Notes: generated from the sequence alone by a model not told the origin. A DNA stretch of 64,000 nt from Lachnospiraceae bacterium (GCA_022791635.1 JAAVZL010000037.1:16242-80241); one strand, 5' to 3'; shown: positions 13,544-58,285, counted from the stretch's first letter. Translations and numbers: made by a program.

Positions 13544-13652
13544 AAAAACAGCAATCTTCCCGAACAGTGCCAGAAGGATTTACAGACGCATTATTTAGCG
13601 GCTGGAAATTCTTCTCTATGTGGCGCTGGAGGGGAGATTGCGAAACTGGAAT
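13544..13652 (+). repeat. Structured element family 2, single copy
   Basis: AAACAGCAAT...ATTGCGAAACTGGAA with nested stems; homologs at 30.9-31.1 kb and 51.7-52.0 kb. Confidence 0.8.
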
Positions 13653-18012: not shown

Positions 18013-18716
18013 GAGCGCTTTTGCTGGCTGCGGGAAAGGGTACGAGGATTAGCAGGTATTTGTCGGGAAATCCCAAGTGTACGGTGGATATCGGGGGGGA
18101 GCGGCTTATTTGCTATACTCTGGATTTGCTGAAGCGGAAGGGGATTACGGAGACGGCTTTGGTGCTTGGGTATAAGGCGGATGTGATCCGGGAGACGGTG
18201 AAGGGGCATGAGGTGTCTTTTTATTATAATCCTTTTTATGATGTGACGAATAGTATTGCTTCGGCTTGGTTTGCTAGGGATTTTTTTAAGGATACGGATG
18301 ATTTGCTGATTATGAATGCGGATGTGTTTTTGGAGGAAGGGGTTCTGGATGATATGATGGGGACTGAGCTTTCTCCGGTGTTGTTTGCGGACGAGACCCG
18401 GAAGGAGGAGGCGGATTATAAGTTTTATTATGAGAACAATGTTCTTATGAAGTATGGGAAGGAGCTGACCGGGGAGGATATTACCGGGGAGTATATTGGG
18501 GCTGCGAAGCTTGATGCCGGGTTTATTCCGGAGTTTGTGGAGCAGATGGATGTGATGATTGGGAGGCAGGAGCATTCGGTCTGGTGGGAGAATGTGCTGT
18601 ATGCCATGACGGACAGGAGAAAGGTTTATGTGAGGAATATTGAGAACCGGTTTTGGGCGGAGGTGGATTATATTGAGGATTATGAGAGGATTTTGAAGTA
18701 TCGGGGGATGAGGTAG
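18009..18716 (+). CDS. Phosphocholine cytidylyltransferase-like nucleotidyltransferase (LicC family)
   Basis: LLAAGKGTRI, PKC, NSIAS, MNADV, GEYIG, WAEVDYIEDY. Confidence 0.82.
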   Translation: MRALLLAAGKGTRISRYLSGNPKCTVDIGGERLICYTLDLLKRKGITETALVLGYKADVIRETVKGHEVSFYYNPFYDVTNSIASAWFARDFFKDTDDLLIMNADVFLEEGVLDDMMGTELSPVLFADETRKEEADYKFYYENNVLMKYGKELTGEDITGEYIGAAKLDAGFIPEFVEQMDVMIGRQEHSVWWENVLYAMTDRRKVYVRNIENRFWAEVDYIEDYERILKYRGMR

Positions 18717-18765
18717 GTGCGGCTGTCCCGGATTTAGGGTGTTGGCTCCGGAAGGGACGTTTCTG

Positions 18766-18819
18766 GTTAAGCCTCGTAGAATGACCGGAGCCTTCACAAG
18801 CCATTCAGGGCTTAACTTC
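18766..18819. repeat. Palindromic element family 1, short copy between convergent genes
   Basis: GTTAAGCCTCGTAGAATGACCGGAGCCTTC...CAGGGCTTAACTTC; overlaps the stop codon of the minus-strand gene. Confidence 0.75.
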
Positions 18820-30940: not shown

Positions 30941-31106
30941 GAAACTGGAAACAGCAGTATTCTCGATAAAGATGCATTGAAGCGAGATATTGCGGAACTG
31001 GAAACAGCAATATCTCCGAAACGCATAGAACGATTTACGGACACATGCTTTTGTGTCCGGAAATTGTTCTCGATAAAGATGCGTTGAAGCGAGATATTGC
31101 GGAACT
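30941..31106 (+). repeat. Structured element family 2, one truncated and one full tandem unit
   Basis: 40-bp direct repeat at 30960-30999 and 31067-31106; stems GCAATATCTC/GAGATATTGC and GGACACA/TGTGTCC. Confidence 0.82.
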
Positions 31107-33333: not shown

Positions 33334-33407
33334 GGCATCTTTTGACTGTACCCTTGTACAATGAGGGTATGAATTGAAAAGCGATTCACCGGGATAGGTT
33401 GTTTGGA

Positions 33408-33485
33408 AATAAGCCAGCAGTCGTTTCCGTATTCGTGTCCAGAGGGTTTACGTGCACAGATATGGAAAGAGACTGCTGGCTTATT
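33408..33485. repeat. Palindromic element family 3, internally deleted copy
   Basis: AATAAGCCAGCAGTC/GACTGCTGGCTTATT arms around TTTCC...GATATGGAAA. Confidence 0.7.
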
Positions 33486-38877: not shown

Positions 38878-38981
38878 GGGGCAGCCGAAAATAGGATAGC
38901 AGACTTTTCGGATATTCCGTGTACGAGAACCATTCGGACACAGGATATGGAAATGTTTGGCGGCTTATTTTGCGGCTGCCC
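38878..38981. repeat. Palindromic element family 3, internally deleted copy
   Basis: GGGCAGCCG-AAAATAGG/CTTATTTT-GCGGCTGCCC arms; core GTACGAGAACC...ACACAGGATATGGAAAT. Confidence 0.75.
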
Positions 38982-39048
38982 TGTTCTTGTATTTTAACTT
39001 CAGAATTGCTATAATAGCCATATCTCAATCACACAGAGGATAATAGAA

Positions 39049-40479
39049 ATGAGAAAAATAGCGAAAGAGAAATGGCCGGAGCTGCTGTTTGTGGCTTTTG
39101 TTCTGGGCCTGTGGCTGTTCTGGGCCTTTATTTTGCCTTTTAATGAGGGACCGGATGAAAATATGCGCTCCCGGATCATTGAATATATCATAGGATACGG
39201 AGGACTTCCCACAGGCTATCAGCAGGAGATTATGGATTACTCCTGGGGGTTTACTTATGGTTTTCGTCCCATTCTTCCGCAGATTGTGGAGGCTTTTTTT
39301 ATTCGGATAGGAATGTTCTTTACCGGGGATGCCTTTTCTCTGCTGTTTATCGGCAGGCTTGCCAGTGTTCTTTGCGGCCTGGTCTTTATTGGCTATGTGC
39401 AGGCCATTGGCAGGAAGCTGTTTCAGGCAAGGGAGATTCAGTGGCTCTTTGTCCTGATGGTGGTGTGTCTTCCTCAGGCGGCTTTTCTGTTTACCTATCT
39501 GAACTGTGATTCTATGGCACTGATGGCTACGGCCATGATTACGTATTATCTCTTAAAGGGAAGGGAAGACTCCTTCTCTACGGGCACCTGTATCCGGCTG
39601 GCAGTGAGCCTTTCTATCTGTGTGCTGTCCTATTATAATGCCTACGGATTTTTGATTACCAGTGTACTGGTTTTCGGAGGCTCTTTTCTGGAGCGAAGCC
39701 GCAAGGGCGAGGACTGCTGGAAGGAATTCTGGAAAAAGGGCTTTTTGATCCTGGGCATTGTGCTGGTTCTGGCCGGCTGGTGGTTTGTGCGGAACTATTT
39801 CCTGTATGAGGGAGATATTCTGGGATTGCGGACGCAGAACGAATATGCAGAGCAGTACGCTATGGACGAGTTAAAGCCCTCCAACCGCCGGACTTATCGG
39901 AACCGGGGCCTTTCTATGGGAGATATGCTGTTTCGCTCTGACTGGGCTCCTTCTGTATTGAAAAGCTTTATCGGCGTGCTGGGGCCTCTGTGGTATGTGC
40001 TGCGTTGGTGGATGTACCTGGGTTATGGCCTGCTGTTTGCGGCGGGAGGCTTGGGGGCTTTTATAGGGCTTGTTTTGAGGCTTTTGGCATGGCGAAAGCA
40101 AAAGGGGCGGCGTACCCTGGATATGGCCGGTCTGTCCCTGCATTTGGGATTTTTGGTGGCGGTTCTGGTTCCCAATTTTTTGAATTTTTGGTATTCCTAT
40201 GCCACGGATTATCAGCCTCAGGGACGTTACAGCATGCCTATGCTGATTCCCTTTATGTACTATGTGGTCTGGGGGCTGGCCTTTTGGGTTAAGAGGCTTG
40301 GAAGGCTTGGAGGCGCTCTTTGGAGGCGTCTGCTTTTGTGGGCAGTCCGGCTGGTCTGTTTGTGGATTGCCGGCGTGTTTCTCTTCTGTGTGGTGCGGAT
40401 TATGTGGCCGGCTTACCGGGATGTGGAGGATAAATCTGTGGTAAAGATTTATACCATGGAGGAGCTTTTTGGCGAATAA
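39049..40479 (+). CDS. GT-C superfamily membrane glycosyltransferase (DUF2142/ArnT/PMT-like), paralog 1
   Basis: PFNEGPDE after TM1, YLNCD, SYYNAYG, WWFVRN, QPQGRY. Confidence 0.8.
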   Translation: MRKIAKEKWPELLFVAFVLGLWLFWAFILPFNEGPDENMRSRIIEYIIGYGGLPTGYQQEIMDYSWGFTYGFRPILPQIVEAFFIRIGMFFTGDAFSLLFIGRLASVLCGLVFIGYVQAIGRKLFQAREIQWLFVLMVVCLPQAAFLFTYLNCDSMALMATAMITYYLLKGREDSFSTGTCIRLAVSLSICVLSYYNAYGFLITSVLVFGGSFLERSRKGEDCWKEFWKKGFLILGIVLVLAGWWFVRNYFLYEGDILGLRTQNEYAEQYAMDELKPSNRRTYRNRGLSMGDMLFRSDWAPSVLKSFIGVLGPLWYVLRWWMYLGYGLLFAAGGLGAFIGLVLRLLAWRKQKGRRTLDMAGLSLHLGFLVAVLVPNFLNFWYSYATDYQPQGRYSMPMLIPFMYYVVWGLAFWVKRLGRLGGALWRRLLLWAVRLVCLWIAGVFLFCVVRIMWPAYRDVEDKSVVKIYTMEELFGE

Positions 40480-40560
40480 AGGGAGAGAAAGGCGAAGAGG
40501 CAAGCTTGTCTGAGGGCGGCAGAGCCCCCTATAATTTCATTAAATGGATGTGATAGGAGG

Positions 40561-41982
40561 ATGCGTATGGGACGGCTTATAAGAAAAAGCTGGCCGGAAG
40601 GGCTTTTATTTTTGTTTGTACTTGGAACCTGGCTGTTCTGGGCCTTTTTGCTTCCTCTCAATGAGGGGCCGGATGAAAATATGCGGCTTCAGATTGTGCA
40701 GTTTATTCTGGAATACCGGAAGCTTCCCACGGGCTGGCAGAAGGAGATTATGGATTATACCTGGGGCTTTACCTATGGGTTTCGTCCCATTTTGCCGCAG
40801 CTTTTGGAGGCGCTGTTTGTGTGGGGCGCGATGATGTTCACGAAGGATGCTTTTTCCCTGCTGTTTGCGGCAAGACTGGCAAGTATTTTTTGCGGCATTG
40901 TCTTTTTTTGGTATGTGTGGAAGCTTGGAGGCGTTTTCTTTGAGAAAAGGATTCATCGGCAGCTGTTTTTGATGCTGAATGTCTGTCTGCCTCAGTCTGT
41001 TTTTCTGTTTACCTATCTGAACTGTGATTCTATGGCGTTGATGGCTTCGGCTATGATTTTATATTATCTGTTAAGAGGAGAGAGGGATTCTTACTCGGTT
41101 CGGACTTGTATGTGTCTGGGAGGGAGTCTCTCTCTTTGTGTGCTGTCTTATTACAATGCGTATGGCTTTCTGGTTACCGGTGTACTGATTTTTGGCGGAT
41201 TTTTTCTGGACCGGATCAGAAAGGGAGAGAAGCGGCAGGGGGAGTTCTGGTGGAAGGGATTTTTGATTCTTGGCTTGGTGCTGGCTCTGACGGGCTGGTG
41301 GTTTGTGCGCAATTATAGGTTGTATGATGGGGATTTTTTGGGGTTAAAGACGCAAGAAGCCTGTGCACAGCGGTATGCGATGGATATCTTTAAGCCCTCG
41401 GGGAGGCGAAATGGCATGAATATGGGGATGTCTTTGGGGGACATGCTGTTTCGTACGGACTGGGTGATTCTGGTGTTTAAGGGATTTGTAGGGGTATTGG
41501 CGCCGCTTACCGAGGCCCGCAGGGACTGGATTTTTGTGGGGTATGGGCTTTTGTTTTTGGTTGGAGGCTTGGGGATTTTGTGGGAATGTGTTGGGGGGCT
41601 GCGGGGGAGGAGATGTTTGGATGTATTTGGGATTGGGGTTCATTTGGGGCTTGTGGTGGCGGTGGTATTGCCCAATGCTTTGAATGTTTGGTATTCGTAT
41701 TCTAATGATTATCAGCCTCAGGGGCGGTATAGTATGCCTATGCTGGTGCCTTTTATGTATTATGTGGTGCGGGGAGTGGGATTTTTTGGAACACGTGTGC
41801 AAGAGAGGTGGGGGGAGAGAGGGAAGAATTTTGGAAAGATTGCAGGGAGGCTTGTGTGCTGGTGGATGGTATTGGTGCTGGGGTTTTGCTCTCTTGGGAT
41901 TATGTGGCCGGCTTATCAGGATGTGGAGAATAAGGCGGAGGTGAGGGTTTATGGTTTGGAGGAGTTGTTTGGGGGGAGGTGA
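40561..41982 (+). CDS. GT-C superfamily membrane glycosyltransferase, paralog 2 (tandem duplicate)
   Basis: Same motifs as 39049-40479 and colinear with it. Confidence 0.8.
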   Translation: MRMGRLIRKSWPEGLLFLFVLGTWLFWAFLLPLNEGPDENMRLQIVQFILEYRKLPTGWQKEIMDYTWGFTYGFRPILPQLLEALFVWGAMMFTKDAFSLLFAARLASIFCGIVFFWYVWKLGGVFFEKRIHRQLFLMLNVCLPQSVFLFTYLNCDSMALMASAMILYYLLRGERDSYSVRTCMCLGGSLSLCVLSYYNAYGFLVTGVLIFGGFFLDRIRKGEKRQGEFWWKGFLILGLVLALTGWWFVRNYRLYDGDFLGLKTQEACAQRYAMDIFKPSGRRNGMNMGMSLGDMLFRTDWVILVFKGFVGVLAPLTEARRDWIFVGYGLLFLVGGLGILWECVGGLRGRRCLDVFGIGVHLGLVVAVVLPNALNVWYSYSNDYQPQGRYSMPMLVPFMYYVVRGVGFFGTRVQERWGERGKNFGKIAGRLVCWWMVLVLGFCSLGIMWPAYQDVENKAEVRVYGLEELFGGR

Positions 41983-41990
41983 GTGATGGA

Positions 41991-42137
41991 GGACGGACAT
42001 TTACTTTTGAAGGATTTTGTTGAAACGGAAGGTGTTTTTAGGAAATGTTCGTCCATATCAGACAGCCTGTAAGCGAACAGCCGGACACATGATATTGGAA
42101 AAGTCTGCTGTCTTCTTTTGCGGCACCCACTGCCCTG
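41991..42137 (-). repeat. Palindromic element family 3, degraded copy oriented opposite to 44515
   Basis: GGACGGACATT...AATGTTCGTCC..CAGACAGC..GCGAACAGCCGGACAC..GATATTGGAAA matches the reverse complement of the 44515 copy. Confidence 0.72.
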
Positions 42138-42515
42138 GTGGCTTAGGATATATGGAAGAAAGAATAGTCCCATAAATGGGAGGATGCCAGGCAGCTGGTC
42201 TGCCTGGCATTTATTATGAAAAAGTTTATTCAAAAAATAGTAATTGCTTACTAGGGACTGTCTTGTTGTTTTTTGTCTTGCTTTATCTTATGGTCTTATT
42301 ATATGGAATAGAAATGAATGGATTATGTTAATCAATTTAACGATTTTTAAAAGATGTGTGAATAAAATGTGAACGTGGTAACGGTTGGTTTCGTTTGGGT
42401 ATGAAATAGGGATTCTGTGTGTTTGTGTTGGTGTTAGGAGATGAAACTCCTAAATTTTGTGAAAGTTTTAAGAAATATTGTATATGGTTCGAAAATTTTT
42501 TAGAACTTCCCACCA

Positions 42516-42603
42516 TTGACATTTTAAATGAGGAGGGTATAATAAGGGGCATATCAAAGGAGATTTTGGTGAGCATTGGCTGCTTACAAAAATCTCCTTT
42601 TTT
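42516..42603 (+). promoter_or_regulatory. Promoter plus ANTAR-like hairpin/terminator leader of the amt gene
   Basis: TTGACA-16bp-TATAAT; ATC-AAAGGA-GAT hexaloop overlapping the terminator AAAGGAGATTTT/AAAATCTCCTTT+T. Confidence 0.6.
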
Positions 42604-42645
42604 ATGTATATGGGCGCCCAGAGGAAGCTGACGGGCGCCCGGCGC
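42599..42645 (+). repeat. Element family 4
   Basis: TTTTTATGTATATGGGCGCCCAGAGGAAGCTGACGGGCGCCC. Confidence 0.65.
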
Positions 42646-42728
42646 CGGGCAGAGAAGATGCTTTTTTGCCCCGGTTAAGAGGGTGGCCACCCGTATTGCT
42701 TTGAGTAAACATACGAGGAGGAAATGTT

Positions 42729-44477
42729 ATGACAGAAGAAATCATGAACACGGTAAGCAGCCAGATCTTCGCAGTCTGGTTTCTCATAGGAGCAGCTTTG
42801 GTTTTTTGGATGCAGGCAGGCTTTGCCATGGTAGAGACAGGTTTTACCCGGGCAAAGAATGCAGGAAATATTTTGATGAAAAATCTGATGGATTTCTGTA
42901 TCGGGACCGTCGTGTTTATCCTGATCGGCTTTGGCCTGCTGTTGGGCGAGGATTTGATGGGCTTTATCGGAAAGCCCGGCTTTGATATCTTCACAGCTTA
43001 TGAGTCCTTTGACTGGTCCAATTTCGTATTCAACCTGGTATTTTGCGCCACCACGGCAACAATCGTTTCCGGCGCCATGGCAGAGCGCACCAAATTTTTA
43101 TCCTACTGTGTCTATTCGGCGGTGATTTCCGCCGTAATCTATCCCATAGAGGCCCACTGGATCTGGGGCGGCGGCTGGCTGGCCCAGATGGGCTTCCACG
43201 ACTTCGCAGGCTCCTGCGCCATCCACATGGTAGGAGGCATCTCCGCCCTCATCGGCGCCAAGCTTCTCGGACCGCGAATCGGCAAATTTACCAGAGACAA
43301 GAGCGGTAAAGTCACCAAAGTCAATGCCTTTCCGGGCCACAATCTGCCCATCGGCTGTCTGGGCGTATTCATCCTCTGGCTAGGCTGGTACGGCTTCAAC
43401 GGAGCCGCGGCCACAAGCGTAGAGCAGTTAGGCTCCATCTTCGTAACCACCACAATCGCCCCGGCCATAGCCACCGTCGTATGCATGATATTCACCTGGA
43501 TCAAATACGGAAAGCCCGACGTATCCATGTGCCTCAACGCATCCCTGGCAGGCCTGGTAGCAATCACCGCCCCCTGCGACGTCACTGACGTCACCGGAGC
43601 CCTGATCATCGGCGCCGTAGCTGGCCTGCTGGTAGTCTTCGGCGTCTGGTTTCTGGACTATAAGCTTCACATCGACGATCCCGTAGGAGCCGTAGCCGTA
43701 CATTGCCTAAACGGCATCTGGGGAACCCTGGCCACCGGCCTCTTCGCCACCACCACCGCCCCTGGCAACGACAGCCTCACAGGCCTCTTTTACGGCGGCG
43801 GCTTTGACCTCCTGGGCAAACAGCTCATTGGCTTCGCAGCCGTAGCCGCCTGGACGACCATCACCATCACCATTGCATTTTTAATCATCAAAGCCACCAT
43901 CGGCCTCCGGGTATCCGAGGAAGAAGAAATCGTAGGCCTGGATTCCTGCGAGCACGGTCTCCCTTCCGCCTACGCCGGCTTCAGCATCATGGACATCGCC
44001 AACACCATGACCATGGAAATAAACGAAAACACCAACCTGGGCGTAGAAGACTACGAAGCAGCCTCCAACACCCAGCGGGAAGCCGCCGTGAAGGTCGTAA
44101 CCCCTCCCGTCTCTTCCGACTCCGGCATCTACAAGGTATCCATCATCGCCAAGCTGTCCCGCTATGACAAGCTGAAGAAAGCCATGAACGATATCGGCGT
44201 AACTGGTATGACAGTCACCCAAGTTATGGGCTGCGGCGTCCAAAAAGGAGCAGGTGAGCGCTACCGCGGCGTAGAAATGGACGCCACCCTCCTCCCAAAG
44301 GTAAAGGTAGAAGTCATTGTAGGCAACATCCCGGTAAATAAAGTCATAGAGACCGCCAAAAAAGTCCTCTACACCGGCCACATCGGCGACGGCAAAATCT
44401 TCGTCTACAACGTAGACCGCGTCGTAAAAGTCCGCACCGGCGAGGAAGACCTGGCAGCCCTCCAGGACGTAGAATAA
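42729..44477 (+). CDS. amtB: Ammonium transporter fused to a C-terminal P-II (GlnK/GlnB) domain
   Basis: MQAGF, SGAMAER, HWIWGGGW, DFAGS..IH, WYGFN, IDDPVGAVAVH; then GMTV..VMGCGVQKG..YRG..LLPKVKVE..TGHIGDGKIF..RTGE. Confidence 0.93.
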   Translation: MTEEIMNTVSSQIFAVWFLIGAALVFWMQAGFAMVETGFTRAKNAGNILMKNLMDFCIGTVVFILIGFGLLLGEDLMGFIGKPGFDIFTAYESFDWSNFVFNLVFCATTATIVSGAMAERTKFLSYCVYSAVISAVIYPIEAHWIWGGGWLAQMGFHDFAGSCAIHMVGGISALIGAKLLGPRIGKFTRDKSGKVTKVNAFPGHNLPIGCLGVFILWLGWYGFNGAAATSVEQLGSIFVTTTIAPAIATVVCMIFTWIKYGKPDVSMCLNASLAGLVAITAPCDVTDVTGALIIGAVAGLLVVFGVWFLDYKLHIDDPVGAVAVHCLNGIWGTLATGLFATTTAPGNDSLTGLFYGGGFDLLGKQLIGFAAVAAWTTITITIAFLIIKATIGLRVSEEEEIVGLDSCEHGLPSAYAGFSIMDIANTMTMEINENTNLGVEDYEAASNTQREAAVKVVTPPVSSDSGIYKVSIIAKLSRYDKLKKAMNDIGVTGMTVTQVMGCGVQKGAGERYRGVEMDATLLPKVKVEVIVGNIPVNKVIETAKKVLYTGHIGDGKIFVYNVDRVVKVRTGEEDLAALQDVE

Positions 44478-44514
44478 ACTTTTAGGTAGAAAAGCACTTA
44501 ACAATACAAAACCA

Positions 44515-44710
44515 GGGAGCAAGACAGGCTGAGGGATTTCCGATATCCGGTGTCCGGCTGTTCGCGAACGCGCTGTCTGCCCCGGACGGACATTACCAAG
44601 AAACCAAAAACCAGAAACATCTTCTAAGGTAATGTCCGTCCGGGGCAGACAGCGTGTACGCGAACCGTCCGAACACAGGATATGGAAATCCCTCAGCCTG
44701 TCTTGCTCCC
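44515..44710 (+). repeat. Palindromic element family 3, full-length 196-bp copy
   Basis: Two perfect 27-bp arm pairs (44515-44541/44684-44710 and 44571-44597/44628-44654) flanking an imperfect conserved core. Confidence 0.9.
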
Positions 44711-44825
44711 GTCCGTTCCGCCCCATACATACTTTACACACATTTTACAAATACTGCGACTATATTTTACAAAAACCTGCTACCCTCATAGTACCCAAAA
44801 CAAACGAAAAAAGGGAGGCACACAC

Positions 44826-46472
44826 ATGGCTCACATCGAAATGCTATTCCGCTTCATCGGCGGCCTTGGAATGTTCCTGTACGGAATGAATGTTATGGCA
44901 GACGGACTGCAAAAATCCGCAGGAGGATCCATGCGCCATCTACTAGGCATCCTGACCCAAAACCGCATCCTGGGAATCCTCCTCGGCGCCATCGTCACCG
45001 CAGTCATTCAAAGCAGCTCTGCCACCACCGTTATGGTAGTAGGCTTCGTAAACGCCGGTCTCATGAACCTGACCCAAGCAGTCGGCATCATCATGGGAGC
45101 CAACATCGGAACCACCATCACCGCCTGGATTGTATCCATGAGCGAATGGGGAAGCATCCTGAAGCCCGAATTCTTCGCCCCCCTGCTCATCGGAATCGGC
45201 GCCTTCCTGATCCTCTTTTCCAAAAAAGAAAAACCCAGAGAACTAAGCGAGATCCTCATGGGCTTCGGCCTTCTCTTCATCGGCTTAAACTTCATGTCCG
45301 GCGCCATCACCCCCTACCGTGACGCCCCCATCTTCTCCGAAGCATTCCGCATCCTTGGCAGCAACCCTGTCCTGGGCATCCTCACCGGGCTTGTGGTAAC
45401 GGCTGTCATCCAAAGCTCCTCTGCCTCCGTAGGAATCCTCCAGACCCTGGCGGCCAACGGCGTAGTAACCTGGAACTCCGCCATTTATATCACCCTGGGT
45501 CAGAACATCGGAACCTGCATAACAGCGCTGCTGTCAAGCCTTGGAGCACAGCGCACAGCCAAGCGTGCAGCCGTTATCCATCTCCTCTTTAACGTAACGG
45601 GCGCCCTGCTCTTCGGAGGAGTCATGTTCGGAATCTTTTCCCTGAATCAGACCCTGGCAGCCGCCCCCATAAACAGCGTACAGATCTCCGTCTTTCACAC
45701 GGTTTTTAATATAACCAACACCATCCTTCTGTACCCTTTTGCCGGCTGGCTGGTCAAAATGTCCGGAATGCTCATAAAGGGAGAAGAGGAAGCCCAGGAA
45801 GAAGAAAGCTTCCCCTTGCCGCATCTGGACGAGCGTATTTTAGAGACTCCTTCCTTTGCAGTGGAGCATGCGGCAAAGGAGGTCGTGCGAATGGGAGAGC
45901 TGTCCTGCCGCCATGCGAATATGGTCTTTGAGGCCGTCCGCACAGGAAATCAAAAACGAGTTGACAAAGCTTATCAATTAGAAGAAACTATGAATAAATA
46001 CGAGAGACAGATGACGGAATACCTGGCCAAAATCGGCAAAGCCTCCCTGACCGATCAGCAGAGACAAGTGGTGGGCAATCTGCTCTACACCGTGGGAGAC
46101 ATTGAGCGAATGAGCGATCACTGTGATAACATTGCAGAAATGGCGGAACAGATGATTAAGGAAAGACTGACCTTTTCTATGGAAGCCATGCATGATCTGG
46201 AAGAAATCGAGAGCCTGACGCTGGACGCGATGAAAGCATCCGTTCTGGCCAGGCAGACAGAGAAAATGGCCTATGTTCAGCAGACCATACAGCTGGAGGA
46301 CGAGGTAGACGATCTGGAAGAGGATTTGCGGGAAAAGCATATAGAACGCCTGACCCGAAATCAGTGTTCCGCAGCAAGAGGCGTAATTTATCTGGATATC
46401 TTGAACAACATAGAACGAATCTCCGACCATGCCAACAACATTGCAGGCTATGTGGCGGATGAAATACAATAA
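44826..46472 (+). CDS. Na/Pi cotransporter family protein with PhoU-like C-terminus
   Basis: GGLGMFLYGM, QSSS x2, GANIGTT, GQNIGT, ERISDH; ATG after GGAGG. Confidence 0.93.
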   Translation: MAHIEMLFRFIGGLGMFLYGMNVMADGLQKSAGGSMRHLLGILTQNRILGILLGAIVTAVIQSSSATTVMVVGFVNAGLMNLTQAVGIIMGANIGTTITAWIVSMSEWGSILKPEFFAPLLIGIGAFLILFSKKEKPRELSEILMGFGLLFIGLNFMSGAITPYRDAPIFSEAFRILGSNPVLGILTGLVVTAVIQSSSASVGILQTLAANGVVTWNSAIYITLGQNIGTCITALLSSLGAQRTAKRAAVIHLLFNVTGALLFGGVMFGIFSLNQTLAAAPINSVQISVFHTVFNITNTILLYPFAGWLVKMSGMLIKGEEEAQEEESFPLPHLDERILETPSFAVEHAAKEVVRMGELSCRHANMVFEAVRTGNQKRVDKAYQLEETMNKYERQMTEYLAKIGKASLTDQQRQVVGNLLYTVGDIERMSDHCDNIAEMAEQMIKERLTFSMEAMHDLEEIESLTLDAMKASVLARQTEKMAYVQQTIQLEDEVDDLEEDLREKHIERLTRNQCSAARGVIYLDILNNIERISDHANNIAGYVADEIQ

Positions 46473-48507: not shown

Positions 48508-48540
48508 AGGAAGAAAGCTTTGAAGAATAGGCAAGGAGAG

Positions 48541-48580
48541 CAGCCGGACACTGGATGTCGGAAAAGTCTGCTGTCCTTTT
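48541..48580 (-). repeat. Element family 3 fragment
   Basis: CAGCCGGACACTGGATGTCGGAAAAGTCTGCTGTC, similar to 42078-42112. Confidence 0.6.
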
Positions 48581-48732
48581 TTGTTTTAATTCCGACATAA
48601 ATTCTTAAAATTGTTTTAAGAATCAGAAAAATAGAGAAAACTATGAAGAAATTAGAGTAGAATAATCGTTTAGAAGGATAGAAGCAGTAAAAAGGAAGAG
48701 GAAAATAAGACAGACAACAGAGGAGGAGAGAC

Positions 48733-51736: not shown

Positions 51737-51960
51737 AAAAACAGCAATATCCCCGAGAAGCATAGAAGAATAAACGGACGAATGCTTTTACGGCCGTTTA
51801 TTCTTCTTGGCAAAGATGCGTCGAGCGGGATATTGCGGAACTGGAATCAAAAACAGCAATGCCCCGACAGCGCCCAGAAGGATTTACAGGCACATGTTTT
51901 TGTGACTGGAAATTCTTCTCTATACTTTGCGTGCTGGAAGGGGTATTGCGGAACTGGAAT
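51737..51960 (+). repeat. Structured element family 2, two tandem ~110-bp units
   Basis: Units 51737-51846 and 51849-51960, each AAACAGCAAT...TATTGCGGAACTGGAAT; second unit runs into the RBS AAGAGGTG. Confidence 0.85.
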
Positions 51961-58191: not shown

Positions 58192-58285
58192 GGAGCTTCC
58201 GAAAAATAAGGCAGCAGACAGCATGTACGCGAACCGTCCGAACACGGATATGGAAAAGTCTGATGGCTTATTTTTCGGAAGCTCC
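58192..58285 (+). repeat. Palindromic element family 3, same orientation as 44515
   Basis: GGAGCTTCCGAAAAATAAG/CTTATTTTTCGGAAGCTCC arms; core CAGACAGCATGTACGCGAACCGTCCGAACACGGATATGGAAA. Confidence 0.85.

Follow-up and report, generated by a model that had tools for sequence, protein, structure and literature searches.

Strong GC and TA skews that correlate positively and peak at third codon positions have been described for GRINS (PMC8256042). These are defined as duplicated regions of more than 500 bp and more than 80% identity with mean absolute GC and TA skews above 0.15; they lie mostly inside polyketide synthase (PKS) genes and have been linked to gene conversion, with their origin left open (PMC8256042). 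REPINs, imperfect palindromes that are abundant between genes and share a short conserved flank motif, persist over long times and often lie at the 3′ ends of genes (PMC3116915). In vertebrate mitochondrial DNA (mtDNA), strand asymmetry is graded with the time spent single-stranded (PMC3269012). In yeast, fragile inverted repeats increase mutation on either side, as far as 8 kb away, by way of breaks, long single-stranded intermediates and Pol zeta (Saini et al. 2013, PMC3681665). Here, we analyzed a 64-kb stretch of DNA (in the following called the window; G000:C2:16242-80241) from a gut Lachnospiraceae bacterium, in which palindromic elements of one family (family 3) are surrounded by strand-specific compositional halos. 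In the literature searched, we found no description of such an element-anchored halo.

The parent genome (G000) is a 3.37-Mb draft in 60 contigs, 84% complete. The original prediction, made from the window alone, had proposed that its swings in composition are halos centered on the palindromes, with a polarity that follows element orientation, and that they are caused by a localized, directional mutational process nucleated at the elements. The observation itself is real and genome-wide: elements lie at the center of the halos, and their polarity determines the sign of the skew.

Compositional halos are centered on oriented elements throughout the genome

Using the window copies as blastn queries, we identified 248 family-3 loci in the genome, with 25% of its sequence no more than 2 kb away from one of them. 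The copies are intergenic, mostly between convergent or co-directional genes, with only 17 of the 248 centers inside called genes. When aligned, 159 full copies form an imperfect palindrome of ~170–220 nt, in which asymmetric positions are conserved, transversions included, and the mean score difference between the two strands is 55 bits. The orientation of an element is therefore a real and discrete property, and these shared asymmetric positions rule out that local composition merely creates an apparent orientation in a palindrome. Among copies between co-directional genes, one orientation relative to the genes is favored (92 versus 39; the bottom strand is the sense strand in 92 of 131).

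Genes were called with our own simple open reading frame and codon-likelihood caller, yielding 2847 genes that cover 87% of the genome. We defined K as the excess of G+T over C+A at synonymous sites, and the residual skew as K minus a single-constant baseline. In co-directional genes flanking the elements, K differed by 0.55 between the two element orientations, a difference that was gone by ~2.3 kb on both sides. The background K is 0.18; beside elements, it rose up to 0.48 for one orientation and fell to about −0.1 for the other. Overall, the synonymous balance of G+T versus C+A shifted by 0.3–0.55 beside the palindromes and regained the background by ~2–3 kb bilaterally. Raw GC and TA skew profiles, which are independent of gene calls, gave the same pattern.

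The halo amplitudes to the left and right of an element were strongly correlated (r = 0.84). An amplitude above 0.3 was found for 48% of the elements versus 11% of 1124 element-free gaps. Looking from the other side, 68 of 124 strong bilateral halos had a family-3 locus in the gap and 30 more lay at most 2.5 kb from one, while such a locus is present in 219 of all 1798 gaps (12%). The genes with the most extreme K of the genome were overwhelmingly adjacent to elements and had the predicted sign, and so did 127 of 165 full copies (binomial p = 2e-12). Hence, skew peaks at the elements and a sign tied to their orientation, both anticipated in the original prediction from few copies, hold throughout the genome.

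The bias follows the DNA strand and the distance from the element

We call top strand the one on which an element is read from CA at its 5′ to GTCC at its 3′ side. This strand became richer in C and A whether the flanking genes lay on the top or on the bottom strand. Convergent neighbors of one element had opposite codon biases, and for five such pairs, Pfam matches confirmed ordinary genes on the strands that had been called. What is biased is the DNA strand, whichever way the genes run. At 1.2–1.6 kb from the element, the residual skew was −0.133 in the adjacent and −0.157 in the second gene (p = 0.57), and in adjacent genes of at least 1.5 kb the proximal 500 bp had a mean of −0.283 versus −0.064 for the distal 500 bp (p = 5e-8). 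The halo depends on the distance from the element, not on gene borders. This continuity into the next gene, the gradient within genes and the strand-following bias led us to reject codon adaptation and whole-gene horizontal transfer, which the original prediction had already judged poor explanations because the effect is mainly synonymous and crosses gene borders; third-position counts and the two distance tests bear this out.

At 4-fold degenerate sites near elements, the frequencies of C and A on the top strand increased (0.32 to 0.48 and 0.17 to 0.21, respectively) and those of G and T decreased (0.33 to 0.20 and 0.18 to 0.12), leaving the GC content at these sites unchanged. Codon positions 1 and 2 shifted alike (+0.025 in reverse-flanked and −0.041 in forward-flanked genes; p = 2e-6), as did intergenic sites near elements. 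The main axis of codon usage in the genome separates C/A-ending from G/T-ending codons, with a correlation of r = −0.80 between 4-fold GC skew and the use of C at NNY codons. Replication-associated GC/AT skew was rejected as a source, since the halos are only ~4 kb wide and are present whether the top strand is the G-rich or the C-rich strand at the large (50-kb) scale.

A hairpin with defined flanks predicts the halo

Family-3 copies with both a CA and a GTCC flank had a mean of −0.517 (standard deviation (sd) 0.12) with the predicted sign in 26 of 26 cases, compared with a mean of −0.12 for copies with neither flank. Strong halos far from family-3 loci contained other hairpins, including mini-forms of family 3 and an unrelated family, and on their C/A-rich strand these had CA directly before and GTCCGTC directly after the hairpin. 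A family-blind search for CA-[stem of at least 9 bp]-GTCCG yielded 16 more sites, 15 of them negative with a mean of about −0.4. Sites with this motif but lacking CA, mostly chance matches within genes, had no halo. GTCCGTC alone was rejected as the determinant, because it had no effect inside genes or in family-2 units and needs a neighboring hairpin; at 489 occurrences versus ~410 expected it is not over-represented and thus unlikely to be a Chi-type signal. The best predictor of a halo is therefore the architecture CA-[long hairpin]-GTCC(G)(T/C)C and not the family-3 core. This modifies the idea of family-3 elements as nucleation points: a localized, directional process at the DNA level withstood all the refuting conditions that the original prediction had listed, but its determinant is the terminal architecture. 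The flanks in strong halos are almost free of G apart from the Gs of CAGGG and GTCC, whose persistence suggests that these bases are under constraint. In flank-bearing copies, the halo extends farther on the 5′ than on the 3′ side, both in G000 and in a distant congener (G010).

Several further hairpin types were noted. One family unrelated to family 3, of ~85 nt with GGCGTGTTAGCC in its loop region and CA…GTCCGTC flanks, lies at C4:73394-73480, C54:31197-31281, C12:3689-3775 and C58:77288-77375, with C/A halos of −0.45 to −0.62. Another, with the arms GTTAAGCC…GGCTTAAC, is located at 18716–18811 of the window (G000:C2:34957-35052), at C3:25.3-27.1 kb and at C54:31122-31317, and centers strong bilateral halos with amplitudes of 0.5–0.7. 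GTCCGTC does not follow the hairpin at the window copy and in the three C3 gaps; at C54, a GTCCGTC-flanked hairpin of the other family is present in the gap as well. The halo process may thus not be limited to one flank motif. A second type of 5′ flank, AAACGTAAA(T/C) just before GGGG stems, occurs at strong halos lacking the 3′ GTCC (C49:50830, C36 and others). The family-2 units are ~110-nt hairpins that end at ribosome-binding sites (13544–13652, 30941–31106 and 51737–51960 in the window and many other sites in G000); they have CGTCCGT in a loop-like position and a halo amplitude of about 0.

Elements, genes and halos in the window

The elements, halos and principal genes of the window are as follows, with positions counted from its first nucleotide.

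33400–33485, no orientation call: short degenerate copy (33408); no halo, residual 0.00
38878–38985, + strand: short copy without CA…GTCC flanks; no halo, residual +0.04
39049–40479 and 40561–41982, + strand: tandem DUF2142 paralogues, GT-C-like membrane proteins (Pfam PF09913; direct repeats D2, D3, D6, D10)
40000–41990, unstranded: G/T-rich (+ strand) halo, GC skew 0.25–0.63, spanning the second DUF2142 gene and the 3′ part of the first
41991–42138, − strand (top strand on −): truncated copy in opposite orientation, left arm and loop (repeat I1; blast orientation −1, 56-bit difference)
42729–44477, + strand: amtB-PII fusion gene (Pfam PF00909 and PF00543)
42970–45760, unstranded: C/A-rich (+ strand) halo over most of amtB-PII, the 44515 element and the membrane part of Na/Pi-PhoU
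44512–44720, + strand (top strand on +): full element copy (inverted repeats I2, I5; blast strand score difference 176 bits)
44682–46472, + strand: Na/Pi cotransporter-PhoU gene (Pfam PF02690 and PF01895); the halo fades inside it, near 45760 (codon blocks)
48530–48585, unstranded: half-element (48541) 3′ of the response-regulator gene; no halo, residual 0.00
58192–58285, + strand: shorter copy, oriented like 44515 (repeat I6; orientation +1, 68-bit difference)

The full copy consists of a CCA 5′ flank (44512–44514), a ~95-bp imperfect hairpin (44515–44710) and a GTCCGTTCCG 3′ flank (44711–44720). Its residual synonymous skew was −0.76 on the left and −0.68 on the right (−0.72 within 1 kb). 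As regards a possible intrinsic terminator, there is no U tract behind the hairpin on the sense strand and only a weak T-rich tail on the antisense strand, and Rfam gave no match at the gathering score in the window; sub-threshold hits were chance matches to miRNA hairpins. Although truncated, the 41991 copy starts with CCAGGG (42133–42138) and ends with GTCCGTCC (41991–41998) on the − strand, and it has a halo (left-side residual +0.45). The 58192 copy has a weaker bilateral C/A halo (−0.38 left, −0.31 right; −0.34 within 1 kb).

The stretch flagged in the original prediction consists of ordinary + strand genes encoding an ROK kinase, the two DUF2142 proteins, AmtB-PII, Na/Pi-PhoU, a histidine kinase and a response regulator. 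The nearest named relatives of its AmtB are from Suilimivivens sp., Lachnospiraceae bacterium 10-1 and Acetatifactor metagenome-assembled genomes. In 300-nt windows, the GC skew of the + strand was +0.59 to +0.63 at 41400–41999 and −0.29 at 45150–45449, with a contig mean of +0.16; GC skews of up to 0.63 coincided with AT skews of −0.2 to −0.4. The two halos of opposite sign are only 2.4 kb apart.

Gene-level K was 0.56 for the second and 0.35 for the first DUF2142 gene, two paralogues with 72–79% DNA identity at unequal distances from the 41991 copy. In the final three 40-codon blocks of the second gene, the ratio of G to C at third positions was 20/2, 19/1 and 22/1, summing to 61 G and 4 C over the final 120 codons. 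Within the C/A-rich halo, third-position C amounted to 16–29 and G to 2–10 per 40 codons. At 4-fold sites of amtB, C reached 0.59 and G 0.12 (genome means 0.29 and 0.34). As whole genes, those within the halos rank in the 1st–5th or 95th–99th percentiles of the genome. The block rich in third-position C extends from ~240 nt into amtB to a point ~710 nt short of the stop codon of Na/Pi-PhoU, hence it is not bounded by genes. The amtB-PII gene is intact and conserved, with rewritten codons: its orthologues share 74–94% protein identity and 44–68% third-position identity. Its in-frame C-terminal P-II (GlnK-like) domain is a fusion kept throughout the genus.

Most local details of the original prediction were thereby reproduced. 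Its hand counts were exact (31 G and 2 C at 41581–41640; 27 C and 13 G at 43741–43800), 44515 and 58192 share one orientation with 41991 inverted, the 58192 copy does have a C/A halo, and the short copies at 33408, 38878 and 48541 have residuals of about 0. The G/T-rich zone intensifies toward 41991, as the third-position counts through the second DUF2142 gene confirm. The C/A-rich zone fades within the Na/Pi gene as described, but its onset lies in the first third of amtB and not in the 3′ half.

Comparison with relatives

Of the 24 congeners sampled, 14 carry family 3; 16 further genera of the same order have no copy. G000, G003, G006, G009, G010, G019, G020 and G024 are rich in the element, G007 and G017 gave a single weak hit each, and G001, G002, G005, G011, G012, G013, G015, G021, G022 and G023 gave none. 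There are no pairs of near-identical copies, and the closest other match to the 44515 copy has 84.5% identity, which points to an old family. From these comparisons, family 3 appears to be an old, vertically persisting intergenic element. At the amtB locus of three species, the full copies differ entirely in their outer stems, each of which is perfectly paired, and CCA…GTCCGTC is kept in all of them. Divergent yet complementary stems suggest either that one arm corrects the other, through template switching or repair of the hairpin, or that the structure is under strong selection. The stems compared are 44515–44541/44684–44710 of the window, L002:3338-3538 and L004:1208-1418, and their inner mismatches are conserved.

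In the closest congener free of the family (G005; 1.19 Mb examined, no family-3 hit), there are essentially no CA-hairpin-GTCC sites. Gene-level K has an sd of 0.088 and a range of −0.29 to 0.37 in G005, versus 0.211 and −0.75 to 0.81 in G000; the corresponding variances of the synonymous skew are 0.008 and 0.045. Among 371 reciprocal-best orthologues, K of reverse-/forward-flanked genes was 0.45/−0.20 in G000 and 0.16/0.12 in G005. For amtB, K was −0.50, −0.43, −0.16 and −0.23 in the four species of the element-bearing clade, graded toward the element, and −0.13 to +0.14 in 14 orthologues without the element. In G005, an ordinary terminator sits at the amtB locus where the element has replaced it here. 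Orthologues without the element are thus unskewed, amtB being skewed only in the element-carrying clade, and the skew does not appear to precede the element; we rejected pre-existing skew on the basis of the G005 orthologues.

A further comparison made use of the distant congener G010, whose AmtB is 74% identical. At twenty loci chosen by blast score alone, the residual was −0.60 to −0.69 beside the element and negative in 21 of 21 cases, the signal had faded by ~3 kb, and the copies carry the same CA/GTCC flanks.

Compared with G005 orthologues, the top strand near elements shows an excess of T>C, relatively more G>A, and an excess of G>C and A>C. A metagenome scan for close strains yielded no relative above 86% protein identity. 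Separate from the halos, GC at silent sites differs genome-wide, with ~0.46 in G005 and 0.65–0.68 in G000 (4-fold sites, 197 orthologues). In G009, two small genes lie between amtB and an inverted, truncated element remnant consisting of GACGGAC and one arm (L005:380-1400); they may be a nucleotidyltransferase/HEPN-type pair. The G009 amtB gene beside this remnant still has a moderate C/A skew (−0.23).

Proposed mechanism and alternative explanations

We consider it likely that the element nucleates a recurrent, strand-asymmetric DNA transaction in which the bottom strand is single-stranded or becomes the favored repair template. The anchor would be the long imperfect hairpin, bounded on its top strand by 5′ CA and 3′ GTCC(G)(T/C)C. 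If a nick or gap recurrently interrupted the top strand at the element, the exposed single-stranded bottom strand would accumulate damage (C>T, A>G and C>G), which gap filling would fix; alternatively, the bottom strand could become the template trusted by mismatch repair. Either route would lead to a keto/amino asymmetry of the mitochondrial type, with ~2–3 kb on each side turning to C/A on the top and to G/T on the bottom strand. Because the same strand is biased on both sides, the pattern speaks against break-and-resection, for which a mirror image is expected, against a local origin or terminus, which should be antisymmetric, and against rolling-circle or conjugative displacement, which should be one-sided.

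Several observations weigh against this proposal. No enzyme was found: the HUH families Y1 (PF01797), Y2 (PF04986) and Rep_trans (PF02486) do not co-vary with the element among 29 congeners. When folded as DNA, the two strands of the 44515 copy are about equally stable (−97.4 versus −96.2 kcal/mol; z about −20). Polarity can therefore not come from hairpin stability alone, and a stabler hairpin on one strand was dropped as its source. The predicted sign is missing in 23% of full copies, and halos are weaker with the top strand on the G-rich strand (−0.13 versus −0.30), a difference that may in part come from the crude baseline. Simple deamination does not account for the surplus of G>C and A>C on the top strand. 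Silent sites are saturated in all available relatives (third-position identity 44–68%), so the changes relative to G005 reflect net composition and not a mutation spectrum. Protein identity to G005 near elements (82% and 78%, versus 79% for distant genes) does not drop; there is thus no sign of hypermutation, and the bias is in direction rather than rate. Finally, the flank rule was derived and first scored in the same genome, G000; it was later seen again in G010 and on the unrelated hairpins of G000.

The original prediction had named an HUH/RAYT-like nuclease as a possible agent. This part found no support: besides the missing co-variation, Y1 has no match in the 84%-complete genome, it is missing from the element-rich G009 and present in the element-free G002, G007, G023 and G043. 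The 13 Y1 transposase loci of congeners, that is, the IS200 copies, share no blast similarity with the element and contain GTCCGTC only twice, ~2 kb from the transposase gene. Genes between two elements were also considered as candidates for a RAYT-like factor, but with 51 such intervals they were too many to be informative.

A sub-variant of the proposed transaction is misdirected mismatch repair, in which a persistent discontinuity of the top strand would cause MutS and MutL to treat this strand as new within ~2 kb, so that copying errors of the bottom strand, mostly G·T-type mispairs, would be fixed and those of the top strand erased. Nick-directed excision tracts of mismatch repair are established biochemistry and have a similar kilobase range, which the bilateral extent of ~1–3 kb and the near-monotonic decay of the halos resemble; the shift is dominated by transitions, and the undiminished protein identity suggests bias instead of hypermutation. 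However, the excess of G>C and A>C is atypical of unrepaired replication errors, and the nick is itself postulated, making this variant rather unlikely. We regard as improbable a strand-specific exchange of single-stranded DNA, in which the hairpin and its flank would be an uptake or transfer signal and one damaged strand would repeatedly be imported or re-annealed. Such an exchange likewise predicts a bilateral halo on a short oriented signal with kilobase-scale decay, and the elements, oriented and often at the 3′ ends of genes, recall neisserial uptake sequences, which often lie there too. Yet GTCCGTC works only beside a hairpin and lacks over-representation, and the unequal extents of the halo on its two sides are left unexplained.

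The remaining explanations place the cause outside the element. Reverse causality, with the skew arising first and elements inserting or surviving in the matching orientation, would fit the orientation bias relative to gene direction and a slight difference between the G005 orthologues of reverse- and forward-flanked genes (0.162 versus 0.119, p = 0.03). But this difference of 0.04 compares with 0.65 in G000, G005 has no halos, its empty amtB site is an ordinary terminator with no skew, and the halos peak at element edges and depend on the flank motif; we find this order of events very improbable. Equally slight are the chances of selection on strand composition, for instance, favoring or avoiding R-loops or secondary structures. 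G-rich non-template strands are known to favor R-loops, and the halo is strongest where sites are free to vary, but it would require selection at more than 100 loci, each across 4 kb and on as many as ~85% of the silent sites, in either orientation relative to transcription, and amino-acid positions are dragged along as under a pressure that proteins resist. Gene-level causes, i.e., codon adaptation to expression or transfer of whole genes, are hardly credible: C-ending codons mark high expression in many bacteria and are used by amtB and the Na/Pi gene, and the main codon axis has the matching form, but a bias of the DNA strand gives convergent neighbors opposite preferences, changes within genes and runs on at the same level into the next one, non-coding flanks and codon positions 1 and 2 shift, and the G005 orthologues are syntenic and unskewed. 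That an assembly or consensus error near palindromes produced the pattern might be suspected from the 60 contigs and the incompleteness of the draft, but we give this practically no credence, given that reading frames are open, proteins conserved and changes mostly synonymous, and that independently assembled genomes of other species (G006, G024 and G010) show it too, which speaks against the artefact that the original prediction had considered.

Relation to known systems

On the wider claim we are evenly divided: the polar CA…GTCCGTC hairpin would be a site-anchored, strand-specific mutational driver that recodes ~2–3 kb on each side, sets much of the codon-usage heterogeneity and may underlie GRINS-like skews, via a hitherto undescribed DNA-processing activity. 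If this is true, the heterogeneity of codon usage and skew in these genomes would stem mainly from a repeat family, and not from replication, transcription or expression level, and the pressure from these repeats would leak into amino-acid composition. A hairpin with a 7-nt flank of defined polarity would provide a testable anchor for intense local skews. Methods that read codon bias or skew as signs of expression, horizontal transfer or replication would misfire near the elements, and a natural generator of strand- and site-specific bias would be of interest for the development of targeted-mutagenesis tools.

Like REPs and REPINs, the elements are abundant intergenic imperfect palindromes (248 loci) with a conserved short flank, persist at orthologous sites, often lie at the 3′ ends of genes and include no close copies indicating recent spread. 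They differ in being far longer, with ~95-bp stems, in their flank, CA…GTCCGTC instead of GTAG, and in the absence from the 84%-complete genome of a cognate RAYT gene (Y1, PF01797), which REPs and REPINs require; we found no report of a compositional halo around REPs in the literature searched. An origin as IS200/IS605-derived (PATE-like) elements finds no support in the ends, which resemble none of the 13 Y1 loci of the congeners. Integron attC sites are hairpins of variable sequence, recognized by their structure and short conserved flanks, with one strand functionally selected. The elements share this combination of structure, short flanks and a favored strand, but no cassettes or matching core sites are present here, and no halo is known around attC sites.

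As with the fragile repeats of yeast, a hairpin-forming repeat affects genes several kilobases away on both sides. Resection, however, exposes opposite strands and should produce a mirror image, whereas here the same strand is affected bilaterally, the polarity is that of the asymmetric flank, and nothing points to an elevated overall rate. The composition itself resembles that of mtDNA, with G/T-rich versus C/A-rich strands at 4-fold sites, G depleted on the C/A strand and a gradient with distance. The difference is that these gradients lie on a bacterial chromosome and are local, bilateral, ~2–3 kb long, repeat-anchored, present in hundreds and independent of replication-type skew.

In both GRINS and the halos described here, correlated GC and TA skews peak at third positions, functional genes have undergone recoding, Gly, Val, Cys and Trp codons increase on the G/T side and Pro, Thr, His and Gln codons on the C/A side, and both polarities occur on one strand within ~1 kb. 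The skews here exceed the level that defines GRINS, but the skewed DNA is not duplicated: it consists of unrelated single-copy genes (amtB, Na/Pi, LysR, YfhO and DeoR), and the only duplicated genes, the DUF2142 paralogues, are 72–79% identical. No anchor has been reported for GRINS, whereas the skews described here form a gradient of distance anchored on an oriented intergenic hairpin.

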